Origin: Rhodothermales bacterium
GTDB lineage: Bacteria > Bacteroidota > Rhodothermia > Rhodothermales > Bin80
NCBI GenBank assembly: GCA_965219915.1
Contig: OZ244794.1
Span: forward strand, 2,833,118-2,897,117
DNA length: 64,000 nucleotides
Direction of reading: 5' to 3'
Position numbers and translations under genes: made by a program. This document shows, one piece after another, positions 17,194 to 37,465 of the stretch. The notes under the pieces were generated by a model that saw only the letters and a list, made by a program, of their open reading frames with translations, did no database searches and was not told where the DNA came from. Position 1 is the stretch's first letter, and each line of letters starts with the position of its first letter.

Positions 17194-17202
17194 CGGAATT
17201 CA

Positions 17203-18237
17203 ATGCTGATCCTTGGTATAGATACTTCCTGTGATGATACTGGCGCAGCTGTGGTGCGTGATGGACATGAGGTGTTGTCAAATGTTATTGCGTCACAACA
17301 CGAAGCTCATGACCGATTTGGGGGTGTCGTACCTGTTATTGCAGCACGGGAACACACCGCCAAGATCAATTTTATCCTAGAGTCCGCATTGGAGGAAGCT
17401 GGTGTCTCATTTGAGGACCTTGATGCAGTCGCTGTTTCACACCATCAAGGTCTTCTCCTTGCTCTTGTCGTTGGGGTTTCAGCTGCGAAATCAATTGCAC
17501 TGGCCTGCAACATTCCTTTGATCGGCATCCATCACCTGGAAGGGCATATCTATTCCAACTTGATGGGACGCTCCAACGTGCTCAAGTTTCCGTTTCTCTG
17601 CCTCACGGTCGCGGGAGGTCACACCCTTCTGCTGAAAGTAGTCTCCCATGGTACCTATGAACTGCTCGGTCACACGCGTGATGACGCCGCAGGTGAAGTA
17701 TTCGACAAGGTCGCGAGGCATCTCGGATTAGGTCATCCGGGAGGCGCATCCATTGAAAAACTGGCCGAGAAAGGCGATCCCGAAGCCTACAATTTCCCCC
17801 GGCCACTTATCAACCGAAAAGATGGTGAGTTCAGCTTCAGTGGCCTCAAGACTGCAGTAATTGCAGCAATTGACAAAGATCCCAATCTGAACAAGGCTGA
17901 CCTCTGCGCCAGCTTCCAACAGGCTGTCGTGGACCTTCTTGTCTCAAAAACCATGCGGATGGCCGACGAACATCAGTTGCGGCAGATTACTCTGGCTGGG
18001 GGAGTAGCCCTTAACTCCCCCCTGCGAACGGCGCTTAAACACGCTGCTGACGATCACGGGTATCAAATCTTTACGCCACGTAACGATCTGTGTATGGATA
18101 ACGGCGCCATGGTAGCCGGCGCAGCCTATTTTCTTTTTAAGGAGCGTGGTCCGGATCCAATTAGCATTGATACACGCGCTAACGCTCCGCTCGGATCAAT
18201 GGGCATTCGCTATCGCCACGACAGCAAGTACAAGTAA
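17203..18237 (+). CDS. tsaD: tRNA N6-adenosine threonylcarbamoyltransferase TsaD
   Basis: The 344-aa ORF contains MLILGIDTSCDDTGAAVV, GIHHLEGHI and VAGGHT (Kae1/TsaD His motifs). Confidence 0.93.
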   Translation: MLILGIDTSCDDTGAAVVRDGHEVLSNVIASQHEAHDRFGGVVPVIAAREHTAKINFILESALEEAGVSFEDLDAVAVSHHQGLLLALVVGVSAAKSIALACNIPLIGIHHLEGHIYSNLMGRSNVLKFPFLCLTVAGGHTLLLKVVSHGTYELLGHTRDDAAGEVFDKVARHLGLGHPGGASIEKLAEKGDPEAYNFPRPLINRKDGEFSFSGLKTAVIAAIDKDPNLNKADLCASFQQAVVDLLVSKTMRMADEHQLRQITLAGGVALNSPLRTALKHAADDHGYQIFTPRNDLCMDNGAMVAGAAYFLFKERGPDPISIDTRANAPLGSMGIRYRHDSKYK

Positions 18238-18241
18238 CCGA

Positions 18242-19738: not shown

Positions 19739-19781
19739 CGAGTAACGATAACTGTTTGTAATGCATTAGTTTTGTTCAATC

Positions 19782-21278: not shown

Positions 21279-21325
21279 TGGTAAACGTAGATGTATGTCA
21301 TTATCAAAACAAGATTAGGTCATAA

Positions 21326-22360
21326 ATGAAACACTGCGTCACATTCGGCGAAATCATGCTGCGGCTTTCTCCGCCCGGGTTCCAGCGATTCGTACAGGCC
21401 TCCTCATTTGACGTGCGCTATGGCGGGGCCGAAGCAAATGTAGCGGCTTCACTGGCCGGATTTGGGATCCCCGTTCAGTTCGTCTCACGCGTGCCCTCGA
21501 ACGAGTTGGGCACCAGCGCGGTGCAAGCTGTCCGTGCACTCGGTATCGGAACACAATTTATCCAGCGCGGAGGCGAGCGCTTGGGAATCTACTTCCTGGA
21601 AACCGGCGCATCTGCACGTGCAAGCAAGGTTGTTTATGACCGCGCATACTCGGGCATCGCCTCTATAGAACCGGGAATGATCAACTGGGATGATGTCTTT
21701 GCAGGAGCAGGTTGGTTTCACTGGACTGGAATCACGCCGGCGGTTTCTGAAGGGGCAGCACTGGCCGTAGAGGAAGCCCTTGCAGCAGCAAGCCGTCACA
21801 ACGTGACCGTCTCCGTTGATCTAAATTATCGCGCTAATTTATGGAAGTGGGGAAAGACCGCCACAGAAGTAATGCCCGATCTGGTAGCTTCATGCGATGT
21901 TATCGTAGGTAATGAGGAGGATGCCCACAAGGTCTTTGGTATTCATCCTGAGGGGGTTGAAGTAAAGAGCGGCCACCTGGATGCTTCCGCCTACGAATCG
22001 GTCGGCCGGCAGCTCATGGAACGATTTCCACGTTGCCAACGGGCTATCATTACGCTGCGCAGCTCTATCAGTGCCTCGCACAATGCCTGGTCCGGTGTCC
22101 TGTGGGATGGATCAAGACTATTGTACGGGCCCGAATACGATATCACGCACATGGTTGACCGAGTGGGAGGGGGAGACTCGTTCGTGGGCGGCTTAATCTA
22201 CGGGCTCCTTTCCTTTGATGGGGACAATCAAAAAGCGTTGAATTTTGCCGTGGCCGCTTCATGTCTCAAACACACTATACCCGGGGATTTCAATCTGGTG
22301 AGCGTGGCTGAGGTTGAAAAACTGCTCTCTGGAGATGCCTCCGGCAGGGTTACCCGCTAA
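21326..22360 (+). CDS. kdgK: 2-dehydro-3-deoxygluconokinase (PfkB sugar kinase)
   Basis: The 344-aa ORF contains TFGEIMLRLSPPGFQRF, YGGAEANVAASLA and the C-terminal GGGDSFVGGLIYGL PfkB motif. Confidence 0.75.
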   Translation: MKHCVTFGEIMLRLSPPGFQRFVQASSFDVRYGGAEANVAASLAGFGIPVQFVSRVPSNELGTSAVQAVRALGIGTQFIQRGGERLGIYFLETGASARASKVVYDRAYSGIASIEPGMINWDDVFAGAGWFHWTGITPAVSEGAALAVEEALAAASRHNVTVSVDLNYRANLWKWGKTATEVMPDLVASCDVIVGNEEDAHKVFGIHPEGVEVKSGHLDASAYESVGRQLMERFPRCQRAIITLRSSISASHNAWSGVLWDGSRLLYGPEYDITHMVDRVGGGDSFVGGLIYGLLSFDGDNQKALNFAVAASCLKHTIPGDFNLVSVAEVEKLLSGDASGRVTR

Positions 22361-22403
22361 CAATGCGTGCAATTGCTTGTGGACATTCCGTATCCACCGA
22401 ATG

Positions 22404-22477
<74 letters not shown>

Positions 22478-22525
22478 GCTACAGCAGATCGTGCTACCCT
22501 GTTCACTCAAAGCTGTTCCAGAATT

Positions 22526-23581
22526 GTGGGAAAACCTAGTTTCGATGTAGTTGTTGCCGGTGCTGGACTAGGCGGTGTGTGTGCGGCTTTGTGGTTCTCC
22601 TCTTCCAACCGGGTATTGCTTTTGTCGGGCACTGCGCCAGCTGCGTCCACTGTTGCGGCGGGGCTGATTAACCCGTTTGCCGGACGGCGCGTTACCCCGT
22701 GCTGGCATGCTGACCTTGCGTACAAAGACCTACTGGACACGCTTGCACACGCTGATGCAAGTGATACTTATGACCCATGTGGTATTTTGCGAACGGCCTT
22801 GGACGAGGCACAGTCCTTAAAACTGCGTTCATTGGTTCAGGAGCATGCTGACTCATTCACTTGGCTACCGCCAGATGAGGCACATTCCCGCTTTCCGTAT
22901 GTGTCCGCCCCTTTTGGTGCTGCAATCACCACTGGTGGAGTAGTTGATACGCCTAGAATGCTGGAGTACACCCGCGGGACGATAGCGTCTCGCTGTACTG
23001 TCCTGGCTTCCGATCTTGTTGGTTGGGAAGATACCGGATCTGGCGTTACCGTTGCCCTCAAATCAGGACCTTCCCTTCGTGCCTCGAAACTAGTCCTTGC
23101 ACTCGGGGCAGGTTACAAGTCCTTTCCTGCACTCTCTGCATTGAATCTACATTGCATCAAAGGCCAAATCGTTCGCGTACTCACTCCAGAGTCTTTTTCA
23201 CACTCCATTCCTGTGAGCGGACATGGATATGTGGTTCCTCTGGGTGACACACTAATTCTCGGGACCACTTACGAGCATTCCTTTCAGAATGATCAACCTA
23301 CAGAAGTGGGATCTAAGAACATTCTCGCGCTAACACAGCAAATGGTACCTAGCGTAGAGACAGCGGATATACTTGATACAGCAGCAGGGATTAGAGTCGG
23401 AGTCCCCGGAACCCGGTTACCGATGGTTGGCCCACTGTCTGGAAATGTGTGGGTCCTGACTGGACTTGGATCACAAGGATTGTTGTTTGGCGCACACATC
23501 GGCCGCAACCTAGTAAACTGGATAACCAATCCTGGGGATGTTCCCAATGAACTACGATTACAGAAAAAACGACGGAATTGA
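22526..23581 (+). CDS. FAD-dependent oxidoreductase (DAO/glycine oxidase-like)
   Basis: The 351-aa ORF has a GTG start and the dinucleotide-binding motif FDVVVAGAGLGGVCAAL. Confidence 0.7.
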   Translation: MGKPSFDVVVAGAGLGGVCAALWFSSSNRVLLLSGTAPAASTVAAGLINPFAGRRVTPCWHADLAYKDLLDTLAHADASDTYDPCGILRTALDEAQSLKLRSLVQEHADSFTWLPPDEAHSRFPYVSAPFGAAITTGGVVDTPRMLEYTRGTIASRCTVLASDLVGWEDTGSGVTVALKSGPSLRASKLVLALGAGYKSFPALSALNLHCIKGQIVRVLTPESFSHSIPVSGHGYVVPLGDTLILGTTYEHSFQNDQPTEVGSKNILALTQQMVPSVETADILDTAAGIRVGVPGTRLPMVGPLSGNVWVLTGLGSQGLLFGAHIGRNLVNWITNPGDVPNELRLQKKRRN

Positions 23582-23673
23582 GTAACCTTTCCCTTCGAAT
23601 AGTCGTTGAACGCCCAGATCTCCCCAAATTATTGGGACCTTTAGTTTTCACAACCTAACCTACAAGTACAACA

Positions 23674-24753
23674 ATGGCTGAAGTTCTGAGCACCGATACC
23701 GCTGCTATACTCGAAGATTCTGCAGAAAATCTCTTGACACATAAGTGCGAGACGATCCCACAGGAAAATCTGTATTTGCCGGGCCCAAACTTTGTGGATG
23801 ATGTTTGGGCAGCATCTGATCGAACCCCTCGTGTACTCCGTTCACTCCAGACACTTTTCGGTTCGGGCCGACTCTCTGGAACAGGCTACGTCTCCATTCT
23901 CCCTGTCGACCAGGGAATTGAGCACTCTGCCGGCGCTTCCTTTGCTAAGAACCCCATTTACTTTGACCCCGAGAATATCGTCCGTCTGGCTATTGAGGGG
24001 GGATGTAATGGAGTTGCATCTACCTATGGTGTATTGGGATCCATCGCACGTAAGTACGCGCACAAGATCCCCTTCATCTTGAAGTTCAATCACAACGAAT
24101 TGTTGAGCTATCCCAACTCACACGATCAGGTACCCTTTGCGAGTATTCAGAACGCTTGGGATATGGGTTGCGTTGGTGTAGGAGCAACCATCTATTTTGG
24201 CTCCGAAAACTCCAATCGGCAGCTACAGGAAGTTTCAGAAGCGTTCGCCCTTGCGCATGAGCTTGGCATGCTAACGATCCTGTGGTGCTACGTGCGTAAC
24301 AGTGCATTCAAGGTTAACGGCGTCAACCACGAGGCTTCCGCGGATCTCACCGGACAGGCTAATCATCTGGGTGTAACCATAGAAGCGGATATCATAAAAC
24401 AAAAGCAGCCCACGTCGAATGGAGGTTATCGTGCCTTGAATTATGGTGACTCCAGTTATGGCAAGTTTGATGAGCGTATTTACACGCAACTAGCGAGCGA
24501 CCATCCAATTGACCTGACCAGATATCAGGTTGCCAACTGCTATATGGGACGTTGCGGACTAATCAATTCTGGCGGTGCTTCAGGTTCGAACGACTTGCAG
24601 CAAGCAGTCAAGACTGCTGTTATCAACAAGCGAGCTGGCGGGATGGGCCTGATCTCCGGGCGCAAGGCCTTCCAGCGTCCGATGAAAGATGGTATCAATA
24701 TCCTGAATGCAATTCAGGATGTCTACCTTGACAAGTCTGTAACCATCGCCTAG
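23674..24753 (+). CDS. fbaB: class I fructose-bisphosphate aldolase (FbaB/DhnA type)
   Basis: The 359-aa ORF is closely colinear with E. coli FbaB ([24 protein letters not shown]..., [27 protein letters not shown]). Confidence 0.9.
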
Positions 24754-25670
24754 GAGTGTAAAACGAATTCGTATGAGGATCTACAGAACTCTATTGAAAA
24801 TTGCATCGCATTGTGTGAACAATTAACACAAATGACCGCGCGAGCCGGCGGCCACGACGGCCGATTCCCTATTCGAGACCATGACACGCTTTCTATCGAT
24901 AGATTGCAAAGGCAGTCCTGAAGGCTCCTCCTAGCCTGGAGTATGCTCCACACAAACCGCCATTGGAAAGGATGGATTTTCTCCTATTTCCATTGCCGAT
25001 GCAATACCGCAAGCGTGAAATCTAGCGGATAGTTTACAACTGCGTATCCCGCTGGAGTACTGCCGTAATCTTGCTCTTCGGATTCTATCGGCACAAGTTC
25101 AGCTGTAGAGAGACGACTGTTGAGCAGGGTTTCATTTCTTATCTACAAGTTTATTACAAGTACCAAAAGTTTCCTGGCGCCATCATTCTCTGAGGGTCTG
25201 CCGTCAGGGCATAGGATTACTCAAGTGGGGCAGATAAGGCACTATATCATTTTTCTTGTATATTTTGCACCCGGATCTGATGTCTGACACGACTCATCAA
25301 CGATGTGGGCACGTATTCAAGATATGACTGAACTTTGGGGGTGTCAGTTTTCTCGGGAAGTGCCGGATTTCAAGCAGGATCATGCAGTTCAAATTACTGA
25401 GATCCGTGCTAGCTCTTCAGTGTATCCAGTTTCCTGTTGAACGGAATGTGGTAGCATCTGTCTGGACTACAATCATTATGTGCGGAAGAGGCACAACACG
25501 GAAATCTGCGAGTACCGTACAAAGGTGGTCATTTGGTGTCAAGATAAATGAATAATGTAAAGGAAGCTCTGATCAATAGCCTTTTGGTGGTAGAGGAGAC
25601 ATGATCGGACATGAAATGCGGCCACGGAGGCTGTGGTCAGGCTACAGGCGTTCTATTTGCGCACCGCTAC

Positions 25671-26723
25671 ATACATTTTGAAGGCGCCAGACGCGCCGTT
25701 GGTGCCGTCCGGGCAGAGCTATTCCGCGATCGCGGCAGTCAGCAGTGAATCACGGGCCAAGTAAAAGTTGGCCAGGGCGGCCAGCGTGTAGACCTGTGCC
25801 GCGTTCTTGCCCAAGCCGCGGTAGCGCGTCCTTCGATAGCCCCAAAGATGCTTGATCACCCCAAAAGTGTGCTCAACCCTGGCCCGGGTCCGGTTGCTCT
25901 TCTTGTTGAAGGACTGGTCCGCACAGTTGAGCTTTCGCTTTCTGGTTGCCTTGCGCAATACACGCCATTCCACGCCCTGCGCTTCCGCCTCCGCCTTCCG
26001 CTGCGCGCTCACGTAGGCCTTGTCGCCGTAGATCACCTGCTCCTGGCCGTGCAAACATTCGTCCATCAGGGTCTCGTCGTGTGCGTTCGCAGGCGTTACC
26101 GCCACACTATGCACCAGACCGTGCGTATCGGTCCCGATATGCGTCTTCATACCGAAATACCACTTGTTGCCCTTCTTCGTCGACTTCATCTCGGGATCGC
26201 GCTGCTTCGCTCGGTTCTTCGTTGACGAGGGCGCCGAGATGATGGTCGCATCCACGATCGACCCCGTCTTCACAAGCAGACCACGCTCTTCCAACATATC
26301 CCGACTCAACTCAAACAGCCGCCGCGTCAAGCCGTGCTGCTCCAATAAATGGCGAAACTTGCAAATGGTCGTCTCATCCGGAGCGTGGCCAGCGTCCACA
26401 CGGGCGAAAATGCGCACCGCCATGTTGTCGTACAACGCATCCTCCATGGCCGGATCCGAATACCCATACCACTGCTGCAAAAAATAGATGCGCAGCATCG
26501 TATCCAACTGCATCGGCGGACGCCCCTTGCCTCCCTTGTAGTAAAACGGCCGGATCAAGTCCAGCATCGCTTCCCAAGGAAGAACCGTGTCCATCTGGGC
26601 CAGGAAACGCTGCTTCCTAGTCTTCTTGGTTCGATTCCAGTAACTCGCGTCCTCAAATGAATCCTGTCTCATGGCTCGGTAATCAATCTCTGTGGTCCAG
26701 TAAGATGAGGCTCTAGCAAAACG
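25671..26723 (-). mobile_element. IS5-family insertion sequence (boundaries approximate)
   Basis: It consists of one InsH-like transposase gene with short flanks. An imperfect terminal inverted repeat is present (25674-25688 cattttgaaggcgcc versus the reverse complement of 26709-26723 ggctctagcaaaacg, about 10/15 matches). The direct repeat CGCTAC (inner CTAC) occurs at 25665-25670 and 26722-26727. GC is much higher than the surroundings. Confidence 0.7.
25719..26672 (-). CDS. IS5-family DDE transposase (InsH-like)
   Basis: The 317-aa ORF is colinear with E. coli IS5 InsH (LPWEAMLDLIRPFYYKGGKGRPPMQLDTMLRIYFLQQWYGYSDPAMEDALYD; VDATIISAPSSTKN; RDPEMKSTKKGNKWYFGMKTHIG; RARVEHTFGVIK). Confidence 0.93.
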   Translation of the reverse strand: MRQDSFEDASYWNRTKKTRKQRFLAQMDTVLPWEAMLDLIRPFYYKGGKGRPPMQLDTMLRIYFLQQWYGYSDPAMEDALYDNMAVRIFARVDAGHAPDETTICKFRHLLEQHGLTRRLFELSRDMLEERGLLVKTGSIVDATIISAPSSTKNRAKQRDPEMKSTKKGNKWYFGMKTHIGTDTHGLVHSVAVTPANAHDETLMDECLHGQEQVIYGDKAYVSAQRKAEAEAQGVEWRVLRKATRKRKLNCADQSFNKKSNRTRARVEHTFGVIKHLWGYRRTRYRGLGKNAAQVYTLAALANFYLARDSLLTAAIAE

Positions 26724-26950
26724 CTACCCCAAAAATACAACCTATCACAAATTAACAATAATTTACCCACATTACCGATTGTGTAACAGATAAAGAACCT
26801 AATTGATGAAACAAATACTTGAAGAGTTACTATATTTGCTGTGAGGCTTATGGGGGCTCTGTCTGTGATCTGCCCCTGGTTTTAGATTTTGGAAATTTGC
26901 AAGAGGCTCAGATGAATGCGAAACTGCCCCGATTAATCAGAGTTTCCTAA

Positions 26951-29900
26951 ATGGGTGAAGAGAAACGAGGAATCGATAATTGGCCTCACAATTCTTCACT
27001 ACCAATTGAATGGACCGAGTTTGGGGACAGAGAATTCTACTTCGCAGAGTATTCCACAGTCGGCGCAATTCCCTCTATTTTGATTGATACTCTGTCATCA
27101 GGCACTACTGATAAAGACCTAGAGGATTGTTTCAGAAAAGTTTTCTCTCAGACGGCATTTCTAATAAAACGAAACCGCGATGCTCTCAAATGTAAAGAAG
27201 CAAGATTCGCTGCGGTAATTCTGGAGAAAATCCTCATTCGGGGTAATACATCCTTACCAACGCTTGGGTTTGAACGTCAAGCCCTGAGAGTTCACGAATT
27301 GTCCGGCTTGATGAGAGAACTGGACGACGATGATCCCGAAATTGGCTGGGAATCAGATGAAGTTGTTGACCTCAAGAGTATTGTTCAGCTGGCTATTGAC
27401 CGGGATGACTTCGTACTTGATCCTGCATTTGAATTTCACGCTAATCGCCCTGACTGTGTGCTTGGGAGCGAAGCTGAGGCTAAATTCCTAAACGACTGGG
27501 TTCCGAGAGAACTAGGGGGCTCAGCTGGCCAATGGTTTATACCACAAGTGCGTTTTGGACCACTCCTGGAGTCGAGGGGAAGGATGAGTTCAAGCGGCGA
27601 TTCTCGACGGATTGACTTCTTGTTTTCCCATCCATGTACTCCACCAATTGCAATTGAGATTGACGGCTCTCAACACGACGATGAGCCACATATAGACGAG
27701 AGGCGAGATCAATTACTGCAATCTGTTGGCATTGAGATCATTCGGGTTTCTACCAGAGAACTAGAGGCAGAGTCGGGACCTTCCCTAGATAAGATCCATC
27801 AACGACTACATGGCCTCTTCACGAAAACGAAGTCGTTGGAAGCAAACCAACAAGTTGCATCACTGGCCAAAAGTTGCACCACTGCGGCTAAGGTCCAGTA
27901 TGCAATCGTTGGGGCACTGTGGCGAGGCTGGTTGCGTCCCGGCAAACATTGGGAAATCGTGATCAACAATGCGACCCAACCCTTGGAGGCCGGTATTCTG
28001 GATTTATTGGAGATGCTTGAAGCTATTGAGGTGATCTATGGCATCCAAGTCTCGCCTTCATCCTGTTCCATCAGGCTGCTATTTGACGGCAGAGTGATCA
28101 ATCTGCCTGATATACCTCCGAATCATGATAATGCAGAGACAGTCGGTGAAGAGAACGATTTCTTCAGTGTTTCTATTGAGGTAAATCGTGGCCCTTTTCA
28201 CAAAATATGTAGCAACAGTGATTTCGACTATGTAATCCGTTCTGCCTATCTTCCCGTTGACCTTATTTCTTCCCCGAAACCAACTCTCGATGGATCCTAT
28301 AGCGCTGATGCACTAAACGATCAATCAGGATCCCGAACTCATCTGGCGCTTCGGCTATTTTTACGTCATGTTTTCAGGAAGCGTGAGTTTCGAGAAGGAC
28401 AATTACAGGGGTTAGTGAATGCGCTCAGAAAAATTGATACGATCATCCTTCTTCCCACTGGAGGAGGGAAGAGTATCATTTACCAACTGGCTGGCCTGCT
28501 CATGCCGGGCATTACACTGGTTGTTGACCCGCTAATCGCGTTGATGGAAGATCAAGTTGAAGGACTTCAGTCCTACGGAATTGATCGGGCAATTGCCATT
28601 TTCTCTACCAATAAGGAAGACCAAGACCGTAAATTCCGGCTAATTGAGAAAGGGCACTATCACTATGTCCTAATATCACCGGAGCGCCTCCAAACTAAGC
28701 CATTTCGTTCTAGTCTTCACTCACTGGCTGAGGACAACCCCATCAATCTAGCAGTCATTGATGAAGCCCACTGCGTTTCCGAATGGGGACATGATTTTCG
28801 ACCCGCCTACCTAAGTCTTGCTAACTCGCTCAGGAACCTTTCATCCTTTGATGGAGATTCTGGTCCCCCCCTCTTGGCTCTGACCGGGACCGCCTCGCGC
28901 GCAGTGCTTAGGGATATGATCAATGATCTGGAAATTGATAAGAATCGTTCAAACTCGTTGATCCGCCCTGACTCGTTTGACAGGCCGGAAATCAAGTTCA
29001 AGGTCATCAGAACATCCCCAGGTCTATCTGACGCGCGACTGAAAAGAGAGTTACAAAGACAACCCCTTGATTTCGGAATTCCCTTGGCGGATTTCTACAA
29101 ACCCAGGAGGAGAAACACAAATTCTGGAATCATATTCGTGCCTACTCTTTGGGAAGTTGACAAGATTCTAGAGCTGGTTGTGGGGTTAATTCCTACGGAA
29201 GTGACATATTACTCCGGCGGATCACCACGCTCGTTTTTGGGGTCTAGGTCTGATTGGGATATGTGTAAGCGTGAGAACGCTCGCAGCTTCAAGCAAAACC
29301 AATCCCCCATACTTGTTGCTACCAAGGCATATGGAATGGGAATTGATAAACCAAATATCCGCTACACAATTCATTACGGCATTCCAAGTTCTCTCGAACA
29401 ATACTATCAAGAAGCCGGGCGCGCAGGTAGGGATAGAAAAGAGGCAGTTTCAATACTCATTCTTGGGGAGATCAACCGTGAGCGATCGGACCGATTGTTA
29501 GATCCTGACTTAGATATAGAGAATCTCAGGAAACGGCATAATGAGATTGCCCGTTCGTTTGACGCCAGAGACGACATCACTCGGGCGCTTTATTTTCACT
29601 TAGAGGGCTTTAAGGGTATTACAGCCGAACTCGAGGATATTAAAAAGCTGGTCGCTGCCATTATTCCAAGGGTTCCATTTATCCCAATTTCGATTCCGTT
29701 CTCGGATAAGAATAAGGCTCGTAAGGAAAAGTCAATATACCGCCTATATAAACTGGGATTCATTAAGGATTACACCGTGGATTGGGGAAAGAAAGAGTTT
29801 TTGGTCACTACAAATAGATTTGATTTTCAAAAATTTCAGGGGAAGTTTCTCGACTATGTGCGAAATATTGCGCCTGGGAAACTCAGATCAACTCGTCGGA

Positions 29901-30706
29901 AAGTTGATTTGATAGATCCAGAGATCCACAACCGGGCAATAATTGATTTGGCGAAGATCCTCATTGAGTTTACCTACGATGAAATTGAGCGTGCTAGGCG
30001 GCGGGCTATACAGGAATCGATTCTCCTTGCGAGGCAATCTAAGTCTGATTCTGACGTGCGCAGGCGGCTACTAGACTATCTCCAAGAGGAAATCGGTTAC
30101 GAAAAAATTGATGAGCTTCTACAGCGCGAACAGGTTGACCTCCATGAATGGATCAACCTCATCGACAAAATTCAAAATCCAATTGAAGCTGGAGAACTTC
30201 GAGGCCTGTGCATCCGTGCCCTTGAGTCCTCAGCTGATCATCCCGGGTTGTTATTTGTTCGTGGAGTAGCTGAGACGATGACTGCAGATTACTATTGGAA
30301 TGTGGCCTCCATGGAGATATCTCGGGCAATAAAGGTCGGAATCGAAAAATATGATGTCACAACTGAACACATTGCGAATGTGATTCAAAGATTATTCAAC
30401 CTGATTCGAGATGATTCTTCCGTAACAAAGGACAAACTATACCAGATTGAGACCAGTCTCACGATGGCCCTTCTTGATGTAGCCGAGAATAGAGACGATT
30501 CTACGGTCAACTTTGCAGAAAAAATCGCACACGAACAAGGTGCCCAAAGCGATATTCCAGAGGTAAAAGCGATCCTCCTTTGTTATCGCCTTGGACAAGT
30601 CATTGAGCAGCTTGAAGATATCTGGAATTCAACAAGTCAAGACCTTGAAAATATTTCACTAACATGGGACTCACGACGCAGTAAACCTAATCTAACCCTA
30701 CCATGA
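26951..30706 (+). CDS. large fusion protein: unknown N-terminal domain + DUF559/Vsr-like restriction-endonuclease-fold domain + RecQ-family SF2 helicase core + about 400-aa helical C-terminal region
   Basis: The 1251-aa ORF has a nuclease-like core RRIDFLFSHPCTPPIAIEIDGSQHDDEPHIDERRDQLLQSVGIEIIRV (DNA about 27605-27760). The RecQ motifs are REGQ, LPTGGGKSIIYQ (Walker A), VIDEAHCVSEWGHDFRPAY (DEAH), LALTGTAS and YYQEAGRAGRD (DNA about 28370-29470). I see no RQC zinc or HRDC signature. Confidence 0.8.
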   Translation: MGEEKRGIDNWPHNSSLPIEWTEFGDREFYFAEYSTVGAIPSILIDTLSSGTTDKDLEDCFRKVFSQTAFLIKRNRDALKCKEARFAAVILEKILIRGNTSLPTLGFERQALRVHELSGLMRELDDDDPEIGWESDEVVDLKSIVQLAIDRDDFVLDPAFEFHANRPDCVLGSEAEAKFLNDWVPRELGGSAGQWFIPQVRFGPLLESRGRMSSSGDSRRIDFLFSHPCTPPIAIEIDGSQHDDEPHIDERRDQLLQSVGIEIIRVSTRELEAESGPSLDKIHQRLHGLFTKTKSLEANQQVASLAKSCTTAAKVQYAIVGALWRGWLRPGKHWEIVINNATQPLEAGILDLLEMLEAIEVIYGIQVSPSSCSIRLLFDGRVINLPDIPPNHDNAETVGEENDFFSVSIEVNRGPFHKICSNSDFDYVIRSAYLPVDLISSPKPTLDGSYSADALNDQSGSRTHLALRLFLRHVFRKREFREGQLQGLVNALRKIDTIILLPTGGGKSIIYQLAGLLMPGITLVVDPLIALMEDQVEGLQSYGIDRAIAIFSTNKEDQDRKFRLIEKGHYHYVLISPERLQTKPFRSSLHSLAEDNPINLAVIDEAHCVSEWGHDFRPAYLSLANSLRNLSSFDGDSGPPLLALTGTASRAVLRDMINDLEIDKNRSNSLIRPDSFDRPEIKFKVIRTSPGLSDARLKRELQRQPLDFGIPLADFYKPRRRNTNSGIIFVPTLWEVDKILELVVGLIPTEVTYYSGGSPRSFLGSRSDWDMCKRENARSFKQNQSPILVATKAYGMGIDKPNIRYTIHYGIPSSLEQYYQEAGRAGRDRKEAVSILILGEINRERSDRLLDPDLDIENLRKRHNEIARSFDARDDITRALYFHLEGFKGITAELEDIKKLVAAIIPRVPFIPISIPFSDKNKARKEKSIYRLYKLGFIKDYTVDWGKKEFLVTTNRFDFQKFQGKFLDYVRNIAPGKLRSTRRKVDLIDPEIHNRAIIDLAKILIEFTYDEIERARRRAIQESILLARQSKSDSDVRRRLLDYLQEEIGYEKIDELLQREQVDLHEWINLIDKIQNPIEAGELRGLCIRALESSADHPGLLFVRGVAETMTADYYWNVASMEISRAIKVGIEKYDVTTEHIANVIQRLFNLIRDDSSVTKDKLYQIETSLTMALLDVAENRDDSTVNFAEKIAHEQGAQSDIPEVKAILLCYRLGQVIEQLEDIWNSTSQDLENISLTWDSRRSKPNLTLP

Positions 30707-31398
30707 TAAAGGAAACATCAACCAACAATCAGGCTCTATTGAAAAAGATCGCTCAGCGACTGCAGCAAACTGAAGACCGTGCTGCTAGTCTTGTCAATAG
30801 GCTTGAGAGTCATCAAAAGATTCAGGACTCAATTGACAATGCGAACAAAGAGCTCCACGAGACCTGTTCGGCTGTTACAAATCTTTCTCTGGATGTAAAG
30901 AGTGCCGTTGAAGAGTTTGTAGATGCTGTGTTTGCACTTAAAGAAATAACTGCAATGCTCCAGGAGACTGATTCAGCAGCCATCCATGAAAAGCTTGATC
31001 TGATCCGCCAAGAGAACAAAAGTATTGGCGACGTGCAAGAATTGATTCGAAAAAATATTGATGCCGCCACCAACCGGATTATTGAACAGCAAAAGATTGA
31101 TGCAGCGACCCACAATGAAAGGCTTGACATGATCCCTCAGAGCATCAAACGGATCGGAGACGGGCAAGAGTTGATTCACAAAAATATTGATGCCGCGACT
31201 GATCGTGCTATTGAACAACAAAAGATTGATTCAGCGGTCCGCAATGAAAAACTTGAATTGATGGGCCAGAACATCAAACGGGTCGGTAACGGGCAAGAGT
31301 TGATTCACAAAAACATTGAAACCGCTACTGAAAAGGTTGTTGCGAGCCTCAAACCACGTACCCTGTGGGAAGGAGTTTTTGGGCGACGGAAGGATTGA
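30703..31398 (+). CDS. coiled-coil protein with 43-aa tandem repeats (unknown function)
   Basis: The 231-aa ORF has a start that overlaps the upstream stop (ATGA). The sequence is rich in heptad-like E/K/Q/I. It contains the repeats GDVQELIRKNIDAATNRIIEQQKIDAATHNERLDMIPQSIKRI / GDGQELIHKNIDAATDRAIEQQKIDSAVRNEKLELMGQNIKRV / GNGQELIHKNIETATEKVV. Confidence 0.7.
   Translation: MIKETSTNNQALLKKIAQRLQQTEDRAASLVNRLESHQKIQDSIDNANKELHETCSAVTNLSLDVKSAVEEFVDAVFALKEITAMLQETDSAAIHEKLDLIRQENKSIGDVQELIRKNIDAATNRIIEQQKIDAATHNERLDMIPQSIKRIGDGQELIHKNIDAATDRAIEQQKIDSAVRNEKLELMGQNIKRVGNGQELIHKNIETATEKVVASLKPRTLWEGVFGRRKD
31027..31340 (+). repeat. about 2.4 copies of a 129-bp in-frame tandem repeat
   Basis: Unit starts are at 31027 (ggcgacgtgcaagaattgattcg), 31156 (ggagacgggcaagagttgattca) and 31285 (ggtaacgggcaagagttgattca). 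Copies 2 and 3 are nearly identical over the first 30 nt or so. Confidence 0.85.
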
Positions 31399-31925
31399 TC
31401 GTGGATTCGTCGTCCTTGTGCAGCTAAAAGTCCAATGTAATTTGGGGCATCCGTATATCCTTGGGTTATATCGAAGCAACATTCAAAATGATATAACCAA
31501 AATCGTTTTAATGGATCAGCGTACGCCGAAAAAGCTTACATGTCCGCTAAGTACAGAGGAGCCGCAGCAGTCAAGCCATGCGAAGCATGCATAGGAGGAG
31601 ATACAGAATTATCAAGGTATCCGATTGAGTCCACTAGATGAACACAACTGGTCATGCGCTATGCTTAGATCTGCGCAGGTATGTCCGAGGAAGACTTGGT
31701 TCGTAACTACTTCAACTACCACGTCAGGAACTGCCATTCCGAATTGGATACCCCGTGATGGCTCACTAGGTGCCTGCAGCAACATGTGCGCACGGACCCA
31801 TACGGCCATGCAGCGCTGCTACTTCAACTACAATATCAGACAACTATACCGCAGGCGGGCGTGACTGCGGAACACCCATAGTTTGATCCCACACACCGAT
31901 TTAGCAAGAGCGGCGAGGAAACGAG

Positions 31926-32786
31926 TCAATTCAATTCCTGCCGAACCACTTCCACATGGGTGGAAAGCTTGGAGTTTAAGGCGCCATTGAATACGCCACG
32001 TACTGGAGGGACATCGCCATAATCCCTCCCAATTGCGACCCGGATATGACGCTCATCGCAATCATCATCATTGACGGGATCCACACCAAACCATCCTGCG
32101 TCCGGCAGCCAGCACTCAACCCACGCGTGACTCTCATTGCGTCCGACAGCATTGCTGTCGGATCCAAGGTATCCAGATACGTAGCGTGAGGGAATGCCCC
32201 AACTCCGCAATATTGAAATCATCACATGAGTATAGTCCTGGCACACGCCCCGACCACTTTCAAGTATATGATCTATCGGCGACTGCGCTGAGGTGCTCCC
32301 AGGCGCATAGACGAAGGCTGCACGCAGCGCAGCTTTCAGGCCTCGGATGCTGTTCAAGGGAGTGCTGCCTTTCTCTATCCCGAATTTATTCATAAAACGC
32401 CTCAGCATAGCGGACGAGGGTCGTGCGAAGTGACTGGGCTGGAGCATCATCCACTGTTGTGGGGTACATATGGCAGTTTCAAGCGTAGCCCAGCTTAGGG
32501 CGCCTAGAGATTCGGCCAGCGGAGGTTGGCTAACAACGTCAACCTCGGAGACCGCGCGGATATTGAGTTCTTGATGTGGACTGGGCCGGTCAAAAAAGTG
32601 CCCCCGGTTACCATAAGAGCCGGTAAAAGAGAAGATAGCTCCCCCGGGATCAGTACCGAGCGAAAAGCTGCGAACCAATTGGTTGAGATTACGGGCAGGT
32701 GCAAGAAAAAGCGTGATCACCGACCTGGTCGCTGCACTCTCGTACGTGAATTTCAACTCGTGGCGTATTGTATAACGGGCAGTCAT
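31926..32786 (-). CDS. transglutaminase-family protein (Bact_transglu_N + transglutaminase core)
   Basis: The start is taken at the internal ATG (MTARYTIRHELKFTYE), which overlaps the upstream stop (ATGA). The catalytic Cys context is GRGVCQDYTHVMISILRSWGIPSRYVSGY, and HAWVECW follows. Confidence 0.85.
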   Translation of the reverse strand: MTARYTIRHELKFTYESAATRSVITLFLAPARNLNQLVRSFSLGTDPGGAIFSFTGSYGNRGHFFDRPSPHQELNIRAVSEVDVVSQPPLAESLGALSWATLETAICTPQQWMMLQPSHFARPSSAMLRRFMNKFGIEKGSTPLNSIRGLKAALRAAFVYAPGSTSAQSPIDHILESGRGVCQDYTHVMISILRSWGIPSRYVSGYLGSDSNAVGRNESHAWVECWLPDAGWFGVDPVNDDDCDERHIRVAIGRDYGDVPPVRGVFNGALNSKLSTHVEVVRQELN

Positions 32787-33751
32787 GACGGTAGTCCCCG
32801 CTCCAAGGGATAATCCACGTATTCGGCGATGATGATGTTGTGCAGCACACGGCATTCCTGAGCAAACTCTGACAAGAAATCCCCTGTTTCCGCATCCTTG
32901 GTGGGTGCCAGCAGGTCGGTCTCGATTGCGGCGGCTAAGTGCAATGCGTGGCGGTGCGGCGCTCTTAGCGGATACCGCCCACCTGCCGGATCTATACCCG
33001 ACAGCAATGTCTGAACGCGCCGGATCGCGAAACTGAGGGAATATGGAATCTCAGGATTGGATAGCAGGAATGCCCGTGCATGTATAGGCTGAATCACCAT
33101 TGAGTACATTCGGCAGTATGCCTCGTAAGCAGCACACACGCCTAGTAGCCCTGTCCACATTTGAAAACTTCCATCTGAGAGACGAGACCATGCCTGCAAC
33201 AGGGCTGTCTGACTCTGCAGCCGTTCGACAAAACGGCCCAAAACAAGGAACCGCCACGCATCATCTCTAGACATCCTGGCTTCAATGACGCCGGACAAAA
33301 GCCGAAGTCGGTCTATGACCCCTGCCGGCAAACTGTTGGGCCCCCGAGCCCAATACTCTGCAAAGTCGCAATCCCGAAGCCAGAAAAAGCCGTCATTGAG
33401 ACATGTCCAAACCCGGACCGGCAGCCAAGGACGAAGTTGCTTGGCATTATCGCGTGCATTGATCCAACTCTGGATGATAGCATTCGGGTTTGCAGGGTCC
33501 TCAATCAGGTAAGCAGCAAGCGCAAAGGCATCGGCAACCAAAAAGGCCTCAGCATCGTCGGCAACTGTGATAGATACGGGAGGCGGTTGTCCGAGCGCTG
33601 CGTACAAGGCCTGCCAGCCGTGTGCCAGCACGTCAGCCGGCGTATCAACTAAGCGTGCAAGATGATAGTCTAGCAGGCGCGCCGTGTGCTCAGCACGCTC
33701 GAAATATCGACCCATCCAGTAAAAATCCGCAGCGGCTCTAGCCAGCATCAT
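32783..33751 (-). CDS. alpha-E domain protein (DUF403)
   Basis: The 322-aa ORF begins MMLARAAADFYWMGRYFERAEHTARLLD, which is the canonical alpha-E start. It has 4-bp overlaps with both neighbours. Confidence 0.85.
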   Translation of the reverse strand: MMLARAAADFYWMGRYFERAEHTARLLDYHLARLVDTPADVLAHGWQALYAALGQPPPVSITVADDAEAFLVADAFALAAYLIEDPANPNAIIQSWINARDNAKQLRPWLPVRVWTCLNDGFFWLRDCDFAEYWARGPNSLPAGVIDRLRLLSGVIEARMSRDDAWRFLVLGRFVERLQSQTALLQAWSRLSDGSFQMWTGLLGVCAAYEAYCRMYSMVIQPIHARAFLLSNPEIPYSLSFAIRRVQTLLSGIDPAGGRYPLRAPHRHALHLAAAIETDLLAPTKDAETGDFLSEFAQECRVLHNIIIAEYVDYPLERGLPS

Positions 33752-35322
33752 TCATTCCTTTTCTCCTCGTTAATCACCCACAAGTCCTTGCAGCCTCCGC
33801 CCTGACTCGAGTTAACAACTAGGCTTCCACGGCGAAGAGCAACGCGGCAGAGCCCCCCAGGTGCTATCCAGGTATCTTCTTTTCCTTGTAGCACAAAGGG
33901 ACGGACATCCACATGACGCGGCTCCAGCTTTCCGTCGGTAAAACACGCTGCACGGGAAAGTGCGAGCGTCGGCTGAGAAATGAAATTCGCAGGGTTGGCT
34001 CGCAGAGTTTCGGCAAAATCCCCTATCTCCTTTGCCGATGCATGCGGTCCGACCAACATCCCGTATCCCCCGGATCCCCCGACCTCCTTCACAACTAGTT
34101 TGTCAAGATTTTCTAATGTATAAGTTAACCCCTCAGTGGTCCTGCAGAGGTAGGTCTCTACATTGGCAAGAATTGGCTCTTCGGAAAGAAAATACCTAAT
34201 GAGGTCGGGTACATAGGCATAAAGCGCCTTATCATCAGCTACCCCCGTACCAGGAGCATTGGCAATTACAACGTTGCCCGCCCTGTATGCATGGAATAGG
34301 CCCGGTACTCCTAAAAGAGAATCACTACGAAAAGTTACCGGATCCAGAAAGTCATCGTCCACGCGTCGGTAAATCACATCAATTCTCTTAAGCCCCGTGA
34401 CGGTTCGCATGAATACCAATCCGTCATGTACAACCAAGTCGCGTCCTTCAACGAGCTCGGCGCCCATCTCACCCGCGAGAAAGGCATGTTCGTAGTATGC
34501 TGAGTTGTACCGGCCGGGAGTCAGTACTGCTACCCGCGGTGTCTGTGTCCAAGTCACGAGCGAGGCTAGTTGGGAGTAAAGTTGCTCTGGATATGGAAGG
34601 ACCTCCCGCACATTATGTGCCCGATACAATCGTGGCATTGCCTGCTTTATCGCAGCACGGCAGGCGAGCATGTACGAGACTCCAGAAGGCACACGGAGAT
34701 TGTCCTCGAGGACGGCAAATCCATCGTAGGTACGGACTATATCGGTGCCGCAAACGGACACATAAGCATCATGAGGGACCTTTGTGCCCAGCATCTCCAT
34801 GCGATACTGAGGACATCCTAAGACGAGATCATGAGGTACGATACCGTCGCGCAACGACCACCCTTCATGGTAGATATCTTTCAGGAACAGGTTGAGTGCG
34901 TGCAAGCGCTGTCGAAGCCCCTGATCAATATGGTCCCATTCAGAAGCAGTTATAACCCGCGGCACACAGTCAATAGGGATAATCTGTTCGGCAGCTTCTT
35001 TTTTGCCGATGACGGTGAAGGTGATCCCCTCGTGAAGGAATCGTCGCCGAACACCATCCTGAAGCTGGATCAGCTGCTCGGACGTGGCGTTGTTTAGTGC
35101 CGTGCCTAATTGCTCCGTTGCCGTCCGCAACGTCCCATTACTGCGAAACATTTCGTCACGAAAACGGCTGTCTATCTCGTAGTGGGTAAAGGCTCCTGTG
35201 CCGGCAACAGCGGGACTGGCCACGCTTGGCCTTGCGCGATCAAAAGACAGGTGCGCCGTGGGGCCCAAATTACCCTGGCTCGGCACGGGTGTCGTCACTG
35301 ATGTATCTGCTTTCGACACCAT
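33748..35322 (-). CDS. circularly permuted type-2 ATP-grasp protein
   Basis: The 524-aa ORF is the first gene of the conserved ATP-grasp/alpha-E/transglutaminase triad. Conserved blocks include GITFTV, IPIDCVPRVI and VVKEVGGSGGYGMLVGP. Confidence 0.8.
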   Translation of the reverse strand: MVSKADTSVTTPVPSQGNLGPTAHLSFDRARPSVASPAVAGTGAFTHYEIDSRFRDEMFRSNGTLRTATEQLGTALNNATSEQLIQLQDGVRRRFLHEGITFTVIGKKEAAEQIIPIDCVPRVITASEWDHIDQGLRQRLHALNLFLKDIYHEGWSLRDGIVPHDLVLGCPQYRMEMLGTKVPHDAYVSVCGTDIVRTYDGFAVLEDNLRVPSGVSYMLACRAAIKQAMPRLYRAHNVREVLPYPEQLYSQLASLVTWTQTPRVAVLTPGRYNSAYYEHAFLAGEMGAELVEGRDLVVHDGLVFMRTVTGLKRIDVIYRRVDDDFLDPVTFRSDSLLGVPGLFHAYRAGNVVIANAPGTGVADDKALYAYVPDLIRYFLSEEPILANVETYLCRTTEGLTYTLENLDKLVVKEVGGSGGYGMLVGPHASAKEIGDFAETLRANPANFISQPTLALSRAACFTDGKLEPRHVDVRPFVLQGKEDTWIAPGGLCRVALRRGSLVVNSSQGGGCKDLWVINEEKRNE

Positions 35323-35665
35323 CTCACGCTATGCAAGAGTTACGTTTAATTGTTCCGGAGTGATTGGACTTGGGTTCCCTTAATTTAGCGATTTCGATGC
35401 GACCATTGCTGAATCCTTCTGGTTCAGTTAAGGGTAGCGCAAGATGTTATACGAGGATTGAGATAGCCCTTGATGTTATCTTAGCCCACAGACAGAACGG
35501 ATCCGCGAGAATCTTTGATATTGGACGGTCTATTGGATACACTGAACTCGTTTCAAGTGTTGAACGCTTTTGACAGTGGATCATGTAACAATCGAAAGGC
35601 CGGGCTATTGTGTATCCTAGACCACCGGGAACCGTACCAAGGCCTTAGACGCATAAGAGTGTGAA

Positions 35666-37432
35666 ATGCAGACACGACATAATTCAGACCTCGACCAGCA
35701 CACGTCGCACCTCCCACGGTGGGCCCAGACGCTTGCAAGGAAGTATTTCACCAAAACACTATCCCAGTTTGTTCTTCACGGCAATGTCCGGGACCTCGTT
35801 CGATACGAGAAACCTGGTTCAGATCAGATAACCTATATAGGTCTAACGCACTTCTTGGCGAAGGAATTATTTGCCGCGAGAGATATCGTGGTGTTCTACG
35901 ACCGCGCAGCAGGGATTCATTTCTTGGATCACCAAGAGGCACAAAAGGATTTTAACCGCGCCTTGACCGGATACGACAGTGCATTTGGGACTGAGTACGC
36001 CGGTAAACGCCCGCGAGCTCCTTCTCAGGTACTTCCCCTTTTGGATAATTACTTCCGCCTGCGCTTGCGCTCAGGAAAAAGGATTGCCTGCATCATTGAC
36101 TATGCAGAAACGATCATCCCCATGGCTGAGGCGTCAATGTACTCGGCCGAGGATCGCAGCGCCTTGATCAGTCTACAGCGCTGGGCTCATGATCCACTGT
36201 TCCTGCGGCACGATTTTACTGTTTGCCTGATTGCAGAAAATCTGAATGACCTCAACCAGCAGCATGTGCAAAGCCCCTGGACCGCCGAAATAGATATCCC
36301 ACTGCCATACGAGGAAGATCGCCTCGCCTTTACCCAGTGGTCAATCAAGGGTCGTGAAACGCTCTTTGACCAACATTCTGATCTTAGTTGTGAAGTATTG
36401 GCACAGCAAACTCCCGGTCTTGGATACACGCAGTTACGCACCATGCTGGCGGATACGCTGGAAAACAAAACGCATCTCAGCTTCAATCATATGTCAACGC
36501 TCAAGAAATCCCTGATTGAGGAGGCGGCATTTGGGATGCTGGAATTTGTGGAATCTGACAATGGGCTAGATGACGTCGCCGGACATTCGGAGGCCAAAAC
36601 TCACTTGCGTTCCGCAGCCCATGCATTGCGTCACGGAATACACGATGTGATGCCTATGGGGTATCTGGTCAGCGGACCGGTCGGCACCGGAAAAACATTT
36701 CTGATCACATGTTTTGCCAATGAGATTGGTATCCCTATGGTCAAGCTGAAGAATTTCCGCTCTCAGTGGCAAGGACAGACCGAGGGGAACCTGGAGCGGA
36801 TATTACATCTTCTTGAGGCCATGCCACCCGTGGCGGTAATGATTGATGAAGCTGATGCTGCACTGGGCAATCGTAGCGCGGAGGGCGACTCAGGTGTATC
36901 CAAACGTGTTTTCGGTCAGATTGCATCCTTCATGAGCAAGCCGGAACACCGTGGACGGATTATTTTCTTCCTGATCACTGCACGACCGGACCTAATGCCA
37001 ATAGACCTCAAACGACAAGGTCGTGCAGAGGAGCATATTGCACTCTTTTATCCCTCTACGCCAGAGGATCGGCTCGAGCTTCTTCATGTCATGATGCGCA
37101 GAACAGGCATCAGTATCCCAGAAAAAGATATCCCTCCCGCCCTGCTGAATGGAAATACAATCTACAGTGGTGCGGATATGGAGGCACTGTTAACACGTGC
37201 AAAGTTCCATGCTGCGGCAACCAGCGGGGACCCCAGTGCAGTTACCGCGGAAATCATGGCTTCTGTTGTCGAAGATTTTGTGCCGCCCGCAAACAGTAAA
37301 GAGAAGGAATTACAGACCCTGGTGGCTATCCTGGAGAGTACAAGCAAAAAATCTCTCCCCGAGATGTACAGATCCATGGACCGCACAAAAATTGTCCGAC
37401 GTGCAAACGAGTTGAAAATGCAGGTCGTTTAA
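35666..37432 (+). CDS. AAA+ ATPase with a large N-terminal (degenerate AAA-like) domain
   Basis: The 588-aa ORF has Walker A GPVGTGKTFL (DNA 36675-36698) and Walker B VAVMIDEADAAL. A second region of homology is ITARPDLMPIDLKRQGRAEEH. The N-terminal 300 aa or so lack a P-loop. Confidence 0.8.
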   Translation: MQTRHNSDLDQHTSHLPRWAQTLARKYFTKTLSQFVLHGNVRDLVRYEKPGSDQITYIGLTHFLAKELFAARDIVVFYDRAAGIHFLDHQEAQKDFNRALTGYDSAFGTEYAGKRPRAPSQVLPLLDNYFRLRLRSGKRIACIIDYAETIIPMAEASMYSAEDRSALISLQRWAHDPLFLRHDFTVCLIAENLNDLNQQHVQSPWTAEIDIPLPYEEDRLAFTQWSIKGRETLFDQHSDLSCEVLAQQTPGLGYTQLRTMLADTLENKTHLSFNHMSTLKKSLIEEAAFGMLEFVESDNGLDDVAGHSEAKTHLRSAAHALRHGIHDVMPMGYLVSGPVGTGKTFLITCFANEIGIPMVKLKNFRSQWQGQTEGNLERILHLLEAMPPVAVMIDEADAALGNRSAEGDSGVSKRVFGQIASFMSKPEHRGRIIFFLITARPDLMPIDLKRQGRAEEHIALFYPSTPEDRLELLHVMMRRTGISIPEKDIPPALLNGNTIYSGADMEALLTRAKFHAAATSGDPSAVTAEIMASVVEDFVPPANSKEKELQTLVAILESTSKKSLPEMYRSMDRTKIVRRANELKMQVV

Positions 37433-37465
37433 CGTAGTCTGTATAAATCCCCTATTGATTTGTTG

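Follow-up and report, generated by a model that had tools for sequence, protein, structure and literature searches.

Two RecQ-family helicases, DpdF and PsyrT/RqlH, have been given roles in defense or as toxins (PMC10925250, PMC4670107). They were the only RecQ-type proteins in a 2024 survey of the DefenseFinder helicases, in which Hhe belongs to superfamily 1 (SF1, Upf1), Nhi to SF1 (UvrD) and Hna to superfamily 2 (SF2, Rad3) (PMC10925250). RqlH, a RecQ-like helicase, is genotoxic unless held in check by a protein that is encoded by the adjacent gene and binds it. This toxicity requires the C-terminal phosphoribosyltransferase (PRTase) domain of RqlH, and RqlI is a DprA-like, molybdenum cofactor (MoCo)-binding protein with a helix-turn-helix (HTH) (PMC4670107). 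In sensors such as Hachiman, Gabija and Druantia III, DNA is scanned by an SF1 or SF2 motor, which permits a PD-(D/E)xK or related nuclease to act on aberrant or invader DNA under the influence of a second, modulating protein (PMC10925250; 10.64898/2026.05.13.724313). Here, we analyzed a 64,000-nt stretch of DNA from a Rhodothermales bacterium (contig OZ244794.1, positions 2,833,118 to 2,897,117; hereafter the window). It carries a gene pair that encodes a 1251-aa nuclease-helicase and a 231-aa helical partner. The pair is credibly an apparently unnamed, widespread candidate defense system built on the nuclease-helicase theme.

An earlier reading of the window from its letters (the sequence-only reading) had proposed a DUF559/Vsr-like core together with a full RecQ motor in the 1251-aa open reading frame (ORF). 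Pfam, TIGR00614 and Foldseek all agreed with this proposal, and the motifs quoted at the time are present in the protein. Pfam placed DUF559 at aa 231-286 with 30.4 bits against a cut-off of 20.6, and also reported DUF2726, DEAD (aa 484-651) and Helicase_C (aa 774-828). The NCBIfam model recQ_fam (TIGR00614) matched aa 471-851 with 245.4 bits (cut-off, 219.8). The equivalogs of housekeeping RecQ were missed, with 274.6 versus 640.2 bits for TIGR01389 and 222 versus 1015 bits for PRK11057. 3D structures of aa 1-1200 (pLDDT 86.4, pTM 0.87) and aa 1-470 (pLDDT 87.3) were modeled using AlphaFold 2. The top 50 Foldseek matches of the longer model were all RecQ, RECQL1/5, WRN or BLM cores (E 1e-18 to 1e-20). 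The shorter model matched the DUF559 crystal structure 3hrl (NGO0050; probability 1.0, TM-score 0.67) and the Vsr-like homing endonuclease I-Bth0305I (3r3p; probability 0.89, TM-score 0.64). The DUF559 domain was the only part recognized in this search; the remaining matches were weak, low-TM-score matches to Cas4, NucS and SfsA-type nucleases.

To describe conservation, we used an alignment of 40 homologs with 25-60% identity to the window protein. The large protein was conserved along its full length. In the nuclease core, G239 and H242 were invariant, and D222, E236 and D238 were kept in at least 90% of the homologs. D222, E236, D238 and H242 are the putative catalytic residues of the domain. 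The helicase core contains motif 0, the Walker A motif LPTGGGKS, DEAH, an aromatic-rich loop (CVSEWGHDFRPAY), TGTAS and QEAGRAGRD. F480/Q484, G504/K507/S508, D604-E605-H607, T647/S649 and Q820..R827 were all invariant, as was the aromatic-rich loop between motifs II and III (C608..W612-G613-H614..F616-R617). Outside these two domains, R97 was invariant and G98 was present in at least 90% of the sequences in the N-terminal domain, and G326, L328, W334 and R430 were nearly invariant in the middle domain.

The sequence-only reading had also noted long N- and C-terminal regions of no recognizable function, and our searches agreed. A Foldseek search of PDB folds gave no convincing match for the N-terminal ~170 aa. 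Foldseek and Pfam matched nothing in the middle domain (aa 297-465). For the C-terminal ~300-400 aa, a profile of the last 397 aa found no significant relative among PDB sequences or in Pfam. Within this region, aa ~956-1251 is a candidate docking site for the partner. The same reading had described the RQC and HRDC modules of RecQ as missing. By Pfam this was correct, for RecQ_Zn_bind (PF16124), RQC (PF09382) and HRDC (PF00570) were found neither in the window protein nor in any family member. By structure it was not fully so, as the RQC-like position appears to be filled. The model has helices at 856-866, 875-886, 890-904 and 922-935 and strands at 913-916, 938-944 and 949-954; aa 856-905 contain no cysteine. 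Foldseek alignments with RecQ catalytic cores span 540-660 columns. In the model, aa ~856-955 appears to occupy the position of the RecQ Zn/winged-helix (RQC) region, with a winged-helix-like fold predicted at aa 913-955.

Among phage families, phrog_33220, a family of unknown function whose profile has 1558 positions, matched aa 458-962 (E 2e-81). The matched span covers the RecQ core and the hairpin and winged-helix region after it, and nothing else of the protein. By this similarity, some phages may encode a motor related to that of the large protein.

We collected loci by exact-protein look-up of homologs, from genomes and by a metagenome scan with the family-specific C-terminal domain. 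The 98 loci formed 67 groups at 90% identity, and 65 groups had at least 450 nt of downstream sequence, in which genes were called by a naive ORF scan. In all 65 non-redundant loci, a complete same-strand ORF of 107-357 aa (median 163) lay directly downstream of the helicase gene. It started between -17 and +141 nt from the helicase stop, and in 28 of the 65 it overlapped the stop, the ATGA-type 4-nt overlap being the most frequent form. A hidden Markov model (HMM) of the partner recognized 58 of the downstream ORFs. When the search was started from the partner, a helicase gene was recovered in four of four loci. The genes that flank the pair differed from locus to locus, with no constant link to replication or repair genes. 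The two genes are a conserved module with obligatory pairing and tight coupling.

These results bear on several points of the sequence-only reading. It had asked whether the small gene is a conserved neighbor, and it is. The pattern that it had named as contrary, synteny with replication or repair genes and no partner, was not seen, as the flanks vary and the partner does not. In the window, the two ORFs have four bases in common (ATGA), the stop of the helicase gene overlapping the start of the partner gene. This overlap was borne out by the ORF coordinates, and the tight coupling is conserved in the family, but the matched stoichiometry deduced from it over-reads a start/stop overlap.

The partner had been called a repeat-rich coiled-coil protein. 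The first half of that description stood, with three tandem 43-aa repeats; the second half is plausible. Periodicity peaks were found at 7.1 and 3.35-3.6 residues, and because the heptad periodicity was not significant against shuffled sequences (p~0.28), we describe the partner as a helical repeat protein, probably coiled-coil. Pfam gave just sub-threshold matches to coiled-coil and apolipoprotein-like families. No significant match was found in PADLOC, Pfam or NCBIfam, and the best PADLOC match (E 0.0012) was to the coiled-coil part of JetC. A profile search with the partner yielded no more than 17 clusters, and no family name scored above threshold in any of them. Across clades, the partners have a conserved N-terminal stretch of ~90-100 aa, with the alignment pattern LL..VA.RL..TE.RAA.V..LE...S.Q.S...A.K.L.E. 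Their lengths differ: 231 aa in the window, 190 aa in P0087, 153-156 aa in L082 and L087, and 266-272 aa in L084 and L086. The P0087 partner is 65% identical to that of the window, and its 190 aa fit one repeat fewer. This suggests that internal helical repeats expand and contract, so that partner length varies.

The partners end in one of two ways. In 38-40 of the 65 locus partners, the C terminus is a transmembrane (TM) helix with almost nothing beyond it. The same was found for 13 of 16 database partner clusters, the window's own being left out. By predicted topology these partners are tail-anchored, and they make up most of the family. This is the most informative trait of the partner, and one that the sequence-only reading had no means of seeing. 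The other 25-27 partners end in short basic tails, e.g., FGRRKG, RKKLGL or SKYGL. This form, which holds two to four hydrophobic residues (e.g., PRTLWEGVFGRRKD, FDRIFGRYRSH, RKKLGL and RSKYGL), is found in the window's clade and in some others.

Both proteins were compared with PADLOC-DB 2.0.0 (2023), the defense model set used here. No system model fitted the pair, in keeping with the earlier expectation that existing defense models would not match, and the matches of the large protein were confined to its helicase core (aa ~467-864). In the literature, we found no description of a DUF559-RecQ protein with such a partner. PsyrTA (RqlHI) is similar in that both are two-gene operons around a RecQ-family SF2 helicase, and the PADLOC PsyrT model matched aa 468-840 of the window protein (E 2e-67). 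The differences are in the remaining parts. RqlH has a C-terminal PRTase domain, whereas the window protein has an N-terminal Vsr/DUF559 domain and an unrelated helical C terminus; no PRTase family was among its Pfam matches even at E<=1. Its family partner is a helical-repeat protein, mostly tail-anchored, with no PsyrA match. With neither a PRTase domain nor a DprA-like/HTH partner, identity with PsyrTA was ruled out.

The best PADLOC matches were to DpdF (E 4e-85), another RecQ-family helicase with a defense context (PMC10925250). They covered the helicase core only, aa 467-864 being aligned with profile positions 10-364 of 610. The NCBIfam DpdF model gave 162.8 bits (cut-off, 550), no further dpd genes were found nearby, and the Dpd system was ruled out on these grounds. 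DpdF is not known to have a conserved tail-anchored partner. Hhe also joins a helicase to a Vsr/DUF559-type endonuclease fold in a single polypeptide. Its nuclease is C-terminal, whereas that of the window protein is N-terminal. Hhe is a single-gene system, whereas the window family has a partner in 65 of 65 loci. The Hhe model was absent among the PADLOC matches listed. The Hhe helicase is SF1 Upf1-like, whereas the window protein is SF2 RecQ. The survey bears out the statement of the sequence-only reading that the helicases of Hhe, Hna and Nhi belong to other families (PMC10925250). Given the SF2 RecQ helicase and the conserved partner, membership in Hhe was ruled out; the Vsr-type nuclease alone is common to both.

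Other systems may be alike in principle. Hachiman (HamAB), Gabija (GajAB) and Druantia III (DruE-DruH) likely have a common working principle with the pair. Their helicases are of the Ski2, UvrD and YprA types, whereas the window protein fuses nuclease and motor, and the second protein of the window family is small, helical and mostly membrane-anchored, with no enzymatic domain. Zorya (ZorAB with ZorC/D) and Kiwa (KwaAB), in the outline given by one source, combine a membrane component with a cytoplasmic DNA-acting effector (PMC11946911). By analogy, this likeness suggests action where invading DNA enters the cell. There is no homology to either system, and the window's clade is without a TM helix. 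As a single-pass protein with few residues at most outside the membrane, the partner cannot sense the envelope as ZorAB and KwaA are thought to.

The family is large. A profile of the C-terminal domain, searched against 1.84 billion representatives at 50% identity, recovered 1882 clusters at E<=1e-3, 1493 at E<=1e-10 and 723 at E<=1e-30. Full-length members have 1100-1370 aa and a single architecture, with the helical domain at the C terminus. In addition, 58 homologs of the large protein were found, many of them full-length with 44-95% identity. Members came from Bacteroidota, Acidobacteriota, Proteobacteria, Cyanobacteria and Planctomycetes-type contexts. A search of E. coli genomes gave no match. 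A scan of genome contigs with the full-length alignment, which in effect used generic RecQ motifs, returned 80 loci, of which 75 were ordinary RecQ genes (reused as the control) and five (L001-L005) belonged to the family. Matches in the BFVD viral structures were generic SF2 helicases, none over the nuclease or C-terminal domains. Some clades carry N-terminal additions that the window protein does not have: a topoisomerase-type zinc ribbon (PF01396), a protein kinase (P0011, 1643 aa) or a HAD hydrolase (P0045 and P0049). Members with such additions are P0011, P0020/P0028/P0029/P0033/P0034, P0045/P0049, L001, L002, L088 and L096.

The coordinates of the pair, its domains and the surrounding island are given in Table 1.

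Table 1. Features of the nuclease-helicase gene pair and its island (positions of the window; residues numbered in the encoded protein)
Feature	Position	Strand	Size or residues	Remark
Nuclease-helicase gene	26951..30706	+	1251 aa	
N-terminal alpha/beta domain	27008..27460	+	aa ~20-170	confident fold in models
DUF559/Vsr-like PD-(D/E)xK endonuclease domain	27470..27820	+	aa ~174-290	Pfam and Foldseek
Middle alpha/beta domain	27839..28345	+	aa ~297-465	long helix 297-325, then five-stranded alpha/beta unit, in both AlphaFold 2 models
RecQ-family SF2 helicase core	28346..29515	+	aa ~466-855	TIGR00614, Foldseek, invariant motifs
Cysteine-free helical hairpin and winged-helix-like module (predicted)	29516..29815	+	aa ~856-955	AlphaFold 2 model
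Family-specific all-helical C-terminal domain (predicted)	29816..30703	+	aa ~956-1251	family profile
Helical partner gene	30703..31398	+	231 aa	start overlaps helicase stop (ATGA)
Conserved N-terminal region of partner	30703..30963	+	aa 1-87	best-conserved part of partner
Three tandem repeats of partner	30965..31351	+	129 nt (43 aa) each	repeat search
Basic C-terminal tail of partner, KPRTLWEGVFGRRKD (…WEGVFGRRKD)	31351..31395	+		position of TM helix in most family partners
Strain-specific insertion	24762..31529	.	6768 bp (~5.4 kb without insertion sequence)	four syntenic relatives without segment
ORF-free island leader	24762..25560	+	~800 bp	no ORF above 67 aa; GC 0.459
IS5-family insertion sequence	25561..26948	-	1388 bp	DDE_Tnp_1 and DUF772 transposase
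IS5 transposase gene	25719..26672	-		points away from helicase gene

In this genome, the pair lies on a strain-specific insertion between a DeoC-type aldolase gene and a transglutaminase operon. Four relatives (L089-L092; 88-92% nucleotide identity) aligned to window positions 13680-24761 and 31530-37455 and carried 63 bp in place of 24762-31529, so that the aldolase gene runs straight to the transglutaminase operon. Two other loci, L081 and L177, had the same island, and two of the four empty-site relatives came from the same sample as these. The pair and leader together had a GC content of 0.458, and the remainder of the window 0.519. Because of the empty site in four relatives and the low GC, the pair is accessory and strain-variable here. 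The leader is conserved only in L081 (2222-3020) and L177; no similarity to other family loci was seen. The native promoter and 5' region presumably lie in it; a regulatory RNA or what is left of a lost gene are other candidate roles. An Rfam scan of 24000-32500 found no RNA family. A promoter and terminator scan gave no more sites than shuffled sequence did, the sigma-70 consensus used being of doubtful relevance in this phylum. No integrase, att-like direct repeat or tRNA-type target was found at the island borders.

The sequence-only reading had placed the pair in a low-GC patch next to an IS5 element. Both observations were correct, as shown by the GC difference and by the IS5-family transposase that abuts the pair. 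The insertion sequence (IS) was nevertheless ruled out as part or carrier of the module, for L081 and L177 carry the island without it. Its 17-nt terminal inverted repeats are located at 25561-25577 and 26932-26948. The target duplication, TAAA, takes in the A of the helicase ATG, so that the insertion is exactly at the start codon. Owing to the IS, the native 5' region is now 1.39 kb from the helicase gene. The insertion is probably recent, because both reading frames are intact. With an IS at this position, the operon may be silent or wrongly expressed, and expression of the pair may therefore be impaired in this genome. One possible view of the insertion is that it naturally knocks down a costly system.

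Three further observations concern genes near the island. At L177 10977-11838, the transglutaminase gene beside the island was called in two pieces (215 and 80 aa), which could be a frameshift or an assembly error. At 35666-37432, the window encodes a 588-aa AAA ATPase with a weak PADLOC IetA match that is limited to the AAA core (E 4e-11). Its conservation in L089 and L090, which are without the island, makes a defense function improbable. At 37909-39963, a GPP34-like (Golgi phosphoprotein 3 family) domain and a cytochrome P450 are joined in a single 684-aa ORF. This combination, unusual for a bacterium, is also kept in relatives (669 aa in L089).

Elsewhere in the family, eight of the 14 loci examined gene by gene adjoin restriction, candidate-defense or mobility genes. 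L082 has PDC-M07A/B inside an integrase/AlpA/MobC/NikA-type island. Type IIG/I restriction-methylase genes are adjacent in L084, L086 and L095, a type IV/DUF262 restriction enzyme in L005, an AAA_15/21 ATPase with DUF3226 in L094, and an integrase-like gene in L002. In L004 (Microcoleus sp. D2_18a_B4), a capP-like peptidase and HTH pair lies directly upstream (6572-7635). L004 is a distant member, with a 1118-aa helicase and a 262-aa tail-anchored partner. Its upstream pair consists of an XRE-type HTH protein and an ImmA/IrrE-type peptidase with a match to the PADLOC capP model (E 3e-14). An HTH protein with an ImmA/IrrE-type peptidase is a regulator pair of CBASS and other defense operons. 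By analogy, this suggests that the L004 clade is under DNA-damage-responsive control.

We propose, with somewhat better than even confidence and from sequence features and analogy, that the pair is a nuclease-helicase immune module against phages or plasmids. The module is most likely horizontally mobile. The RecQ-type motor would load on DNA typical of invaders (ends, forks and junctions of single- and double-stranded DNA) and translocate 3'->5' with ATP, and the fused Vsr/DUF559-like endonuclease would nick or cut the DNA during translocation. The partner, made from the same message, would probably bind the C-terminal helical domain of the large protein. It would control the effector, either keeping it at the inner face of the membrane or letting it go. 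The membrane anchor would be the TM helix in most of the family and the short basic tail in the window's clade, and partner length would be set by the variable number of helical repeats. Such action would resemble that of Hachiman HamAB, Druantia DruE, Nhi, Hna, Hhe and DdmD. The defense role, the DNA substrate and the membrane localization in the window's clade are what we infer.

Several observations weigh against this proposal. The window partner has no TM helix (highest 19-residue Kyte-Doolittle mean, 1.09). The hydrophobic moment of its basic tail was not above that of shuffled sequences, in a test that the MinD control also failed. For enrichment in defense islands, which the sequence-only reading had suggested checking, the signal was modest. 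The two nearest genes on each side matched 207 PADLOC families at the 67 family loci and 74 at control RecQ loci (E<=1e-10), a crude comparison that counts model families rather than proteins and carries no statistic. Together with the eight of 14 loci, it speaks for a possible defense-island association, which we rate as moderate. The Pfam profile of the neighbors is mixed, and in several loci, among them the window, L087, L088 and L093, all neighbors are housekeeping genes. In the window, these include a sulfate symporter, PfkB, DAO and DeoC genes and the transglutaminase/ATP-grasp operon. A scan of viral contigs with a single peptide pattern found no relatives. There is also a small chance that a name for the system already exists, as a recent naming is possible.

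Other functions have to be weighed against the same evidence. The pair could be a toxin-antitoxin or abortive infection system, in which the nuclease-helicase would damage the DNA of the cell that makes it unless neutralized by the partner, acting as a stoichiometric inhibitor or as a tether. If the partner were lost or titrated upon infection or after element loss, chromosome damage would follow; the logic resembles that of RqlH/RqlI (PsyrTA). This idea overlaps with defense and differs in the target (self DNA) and the outcome (cell death or addiction). The PsyrT match to the helicase core, the restraint of RqlH by an interacting neighbor protein (PMC4670107) and the obligatory, tightly coupled small partner all fit it, and an IS at the effector start codon would be in line with a costly or toxic gene being selected against. 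However, RqlH toxicity depends on the PRTase domain that the window protein does not have, and the partner is unrelated to RqlI. The partner gene also follows that of the effector, and antitoxins are not typically tail-anchored helical proteins. We consider a toxin-antitoxin role rather unlikely. Repair is the classical role of both RecQ helicases and Vsr endonucleases, and the core of the motor truly belongs to the RecQ family. The large protein could thus be an accessory repair or recombination enzyme, a RecQ paralogue with a Vsr-like nicking domain and no conflict role. Its substrates would be stalled forks, mismatches or DNA damage, perhaps where replication is attached to the membrane. 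The loci with housekeeping neighbors only would agree with this. However, close relatives differ in whether they carry the pair at a site that is syntenic in all other respects. The pair is also foreign in base composition and patchy across phyla, and its neighbors are never the same twice. Restriction genes, candidate-defense genes and integrases are often adjacent, and the RecQ equivalog threshold was missed (275 versus 640 bits). A pure repair function is very doubtful on this evidence.

The pair might also be cargo that serves a mobile element, by entry exclusion, by counter-defense, or by processing the element's own DNA at the membrane during transfer or replication. The L082 island, the integrase-like neighbor in L002 and the phrog_33220 match are in favor of such a role, and a membrane anchor would suit a DNA-transfer apparatus. 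However, most loci, the window island included, are without mobility genes, and conjugation or replication genes are not conserved neighbors. The viral-contig scan with its single peptide pattern and the generic BFVD matches count against it as well, and we regard it as very improbable. Within the proposed immune module, the partner could act as a molecular leash that tells self from non-self by position, tethering a constitutively competent RecQ nuclease-helicase at the inner face of the membrane. The enzyme would there meet incoming DNA and stay off the nucleoid. The anchor would be the TM helix or, in the window's clade, the reversible basic tail, and the tether would reach more or less far as the 43-aa repeats expand or contract. 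This form of the mechanism is speculative and, taken by itself, quite unlikely. If it were true, defense would be achieved by spatial confinement of a nuclease, and not by sensing of modification, sequence or damage.

If the pair does protect against phages or plasmids, it would be the third RecQ-based immune module, beside Dpd and PsyrTA, and the first in which a RecQ motor is fused to a Vsr-like nuclease and joined by a small membrane-anchored helical partner. Because the family is large, spread over many phyla and unannotated, current defense annotation would miss it in thousands of genomes. The tail-anchored, repeat-variable partner bears on the question of how a nuclease-helicase spares its own chromosome, for which localization and sequestration are the candidate answers. 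In this population, the presence/absence polymorphism of the island, together with the IS at the start codon, provides a ready comparison for the fitness cost of the system.

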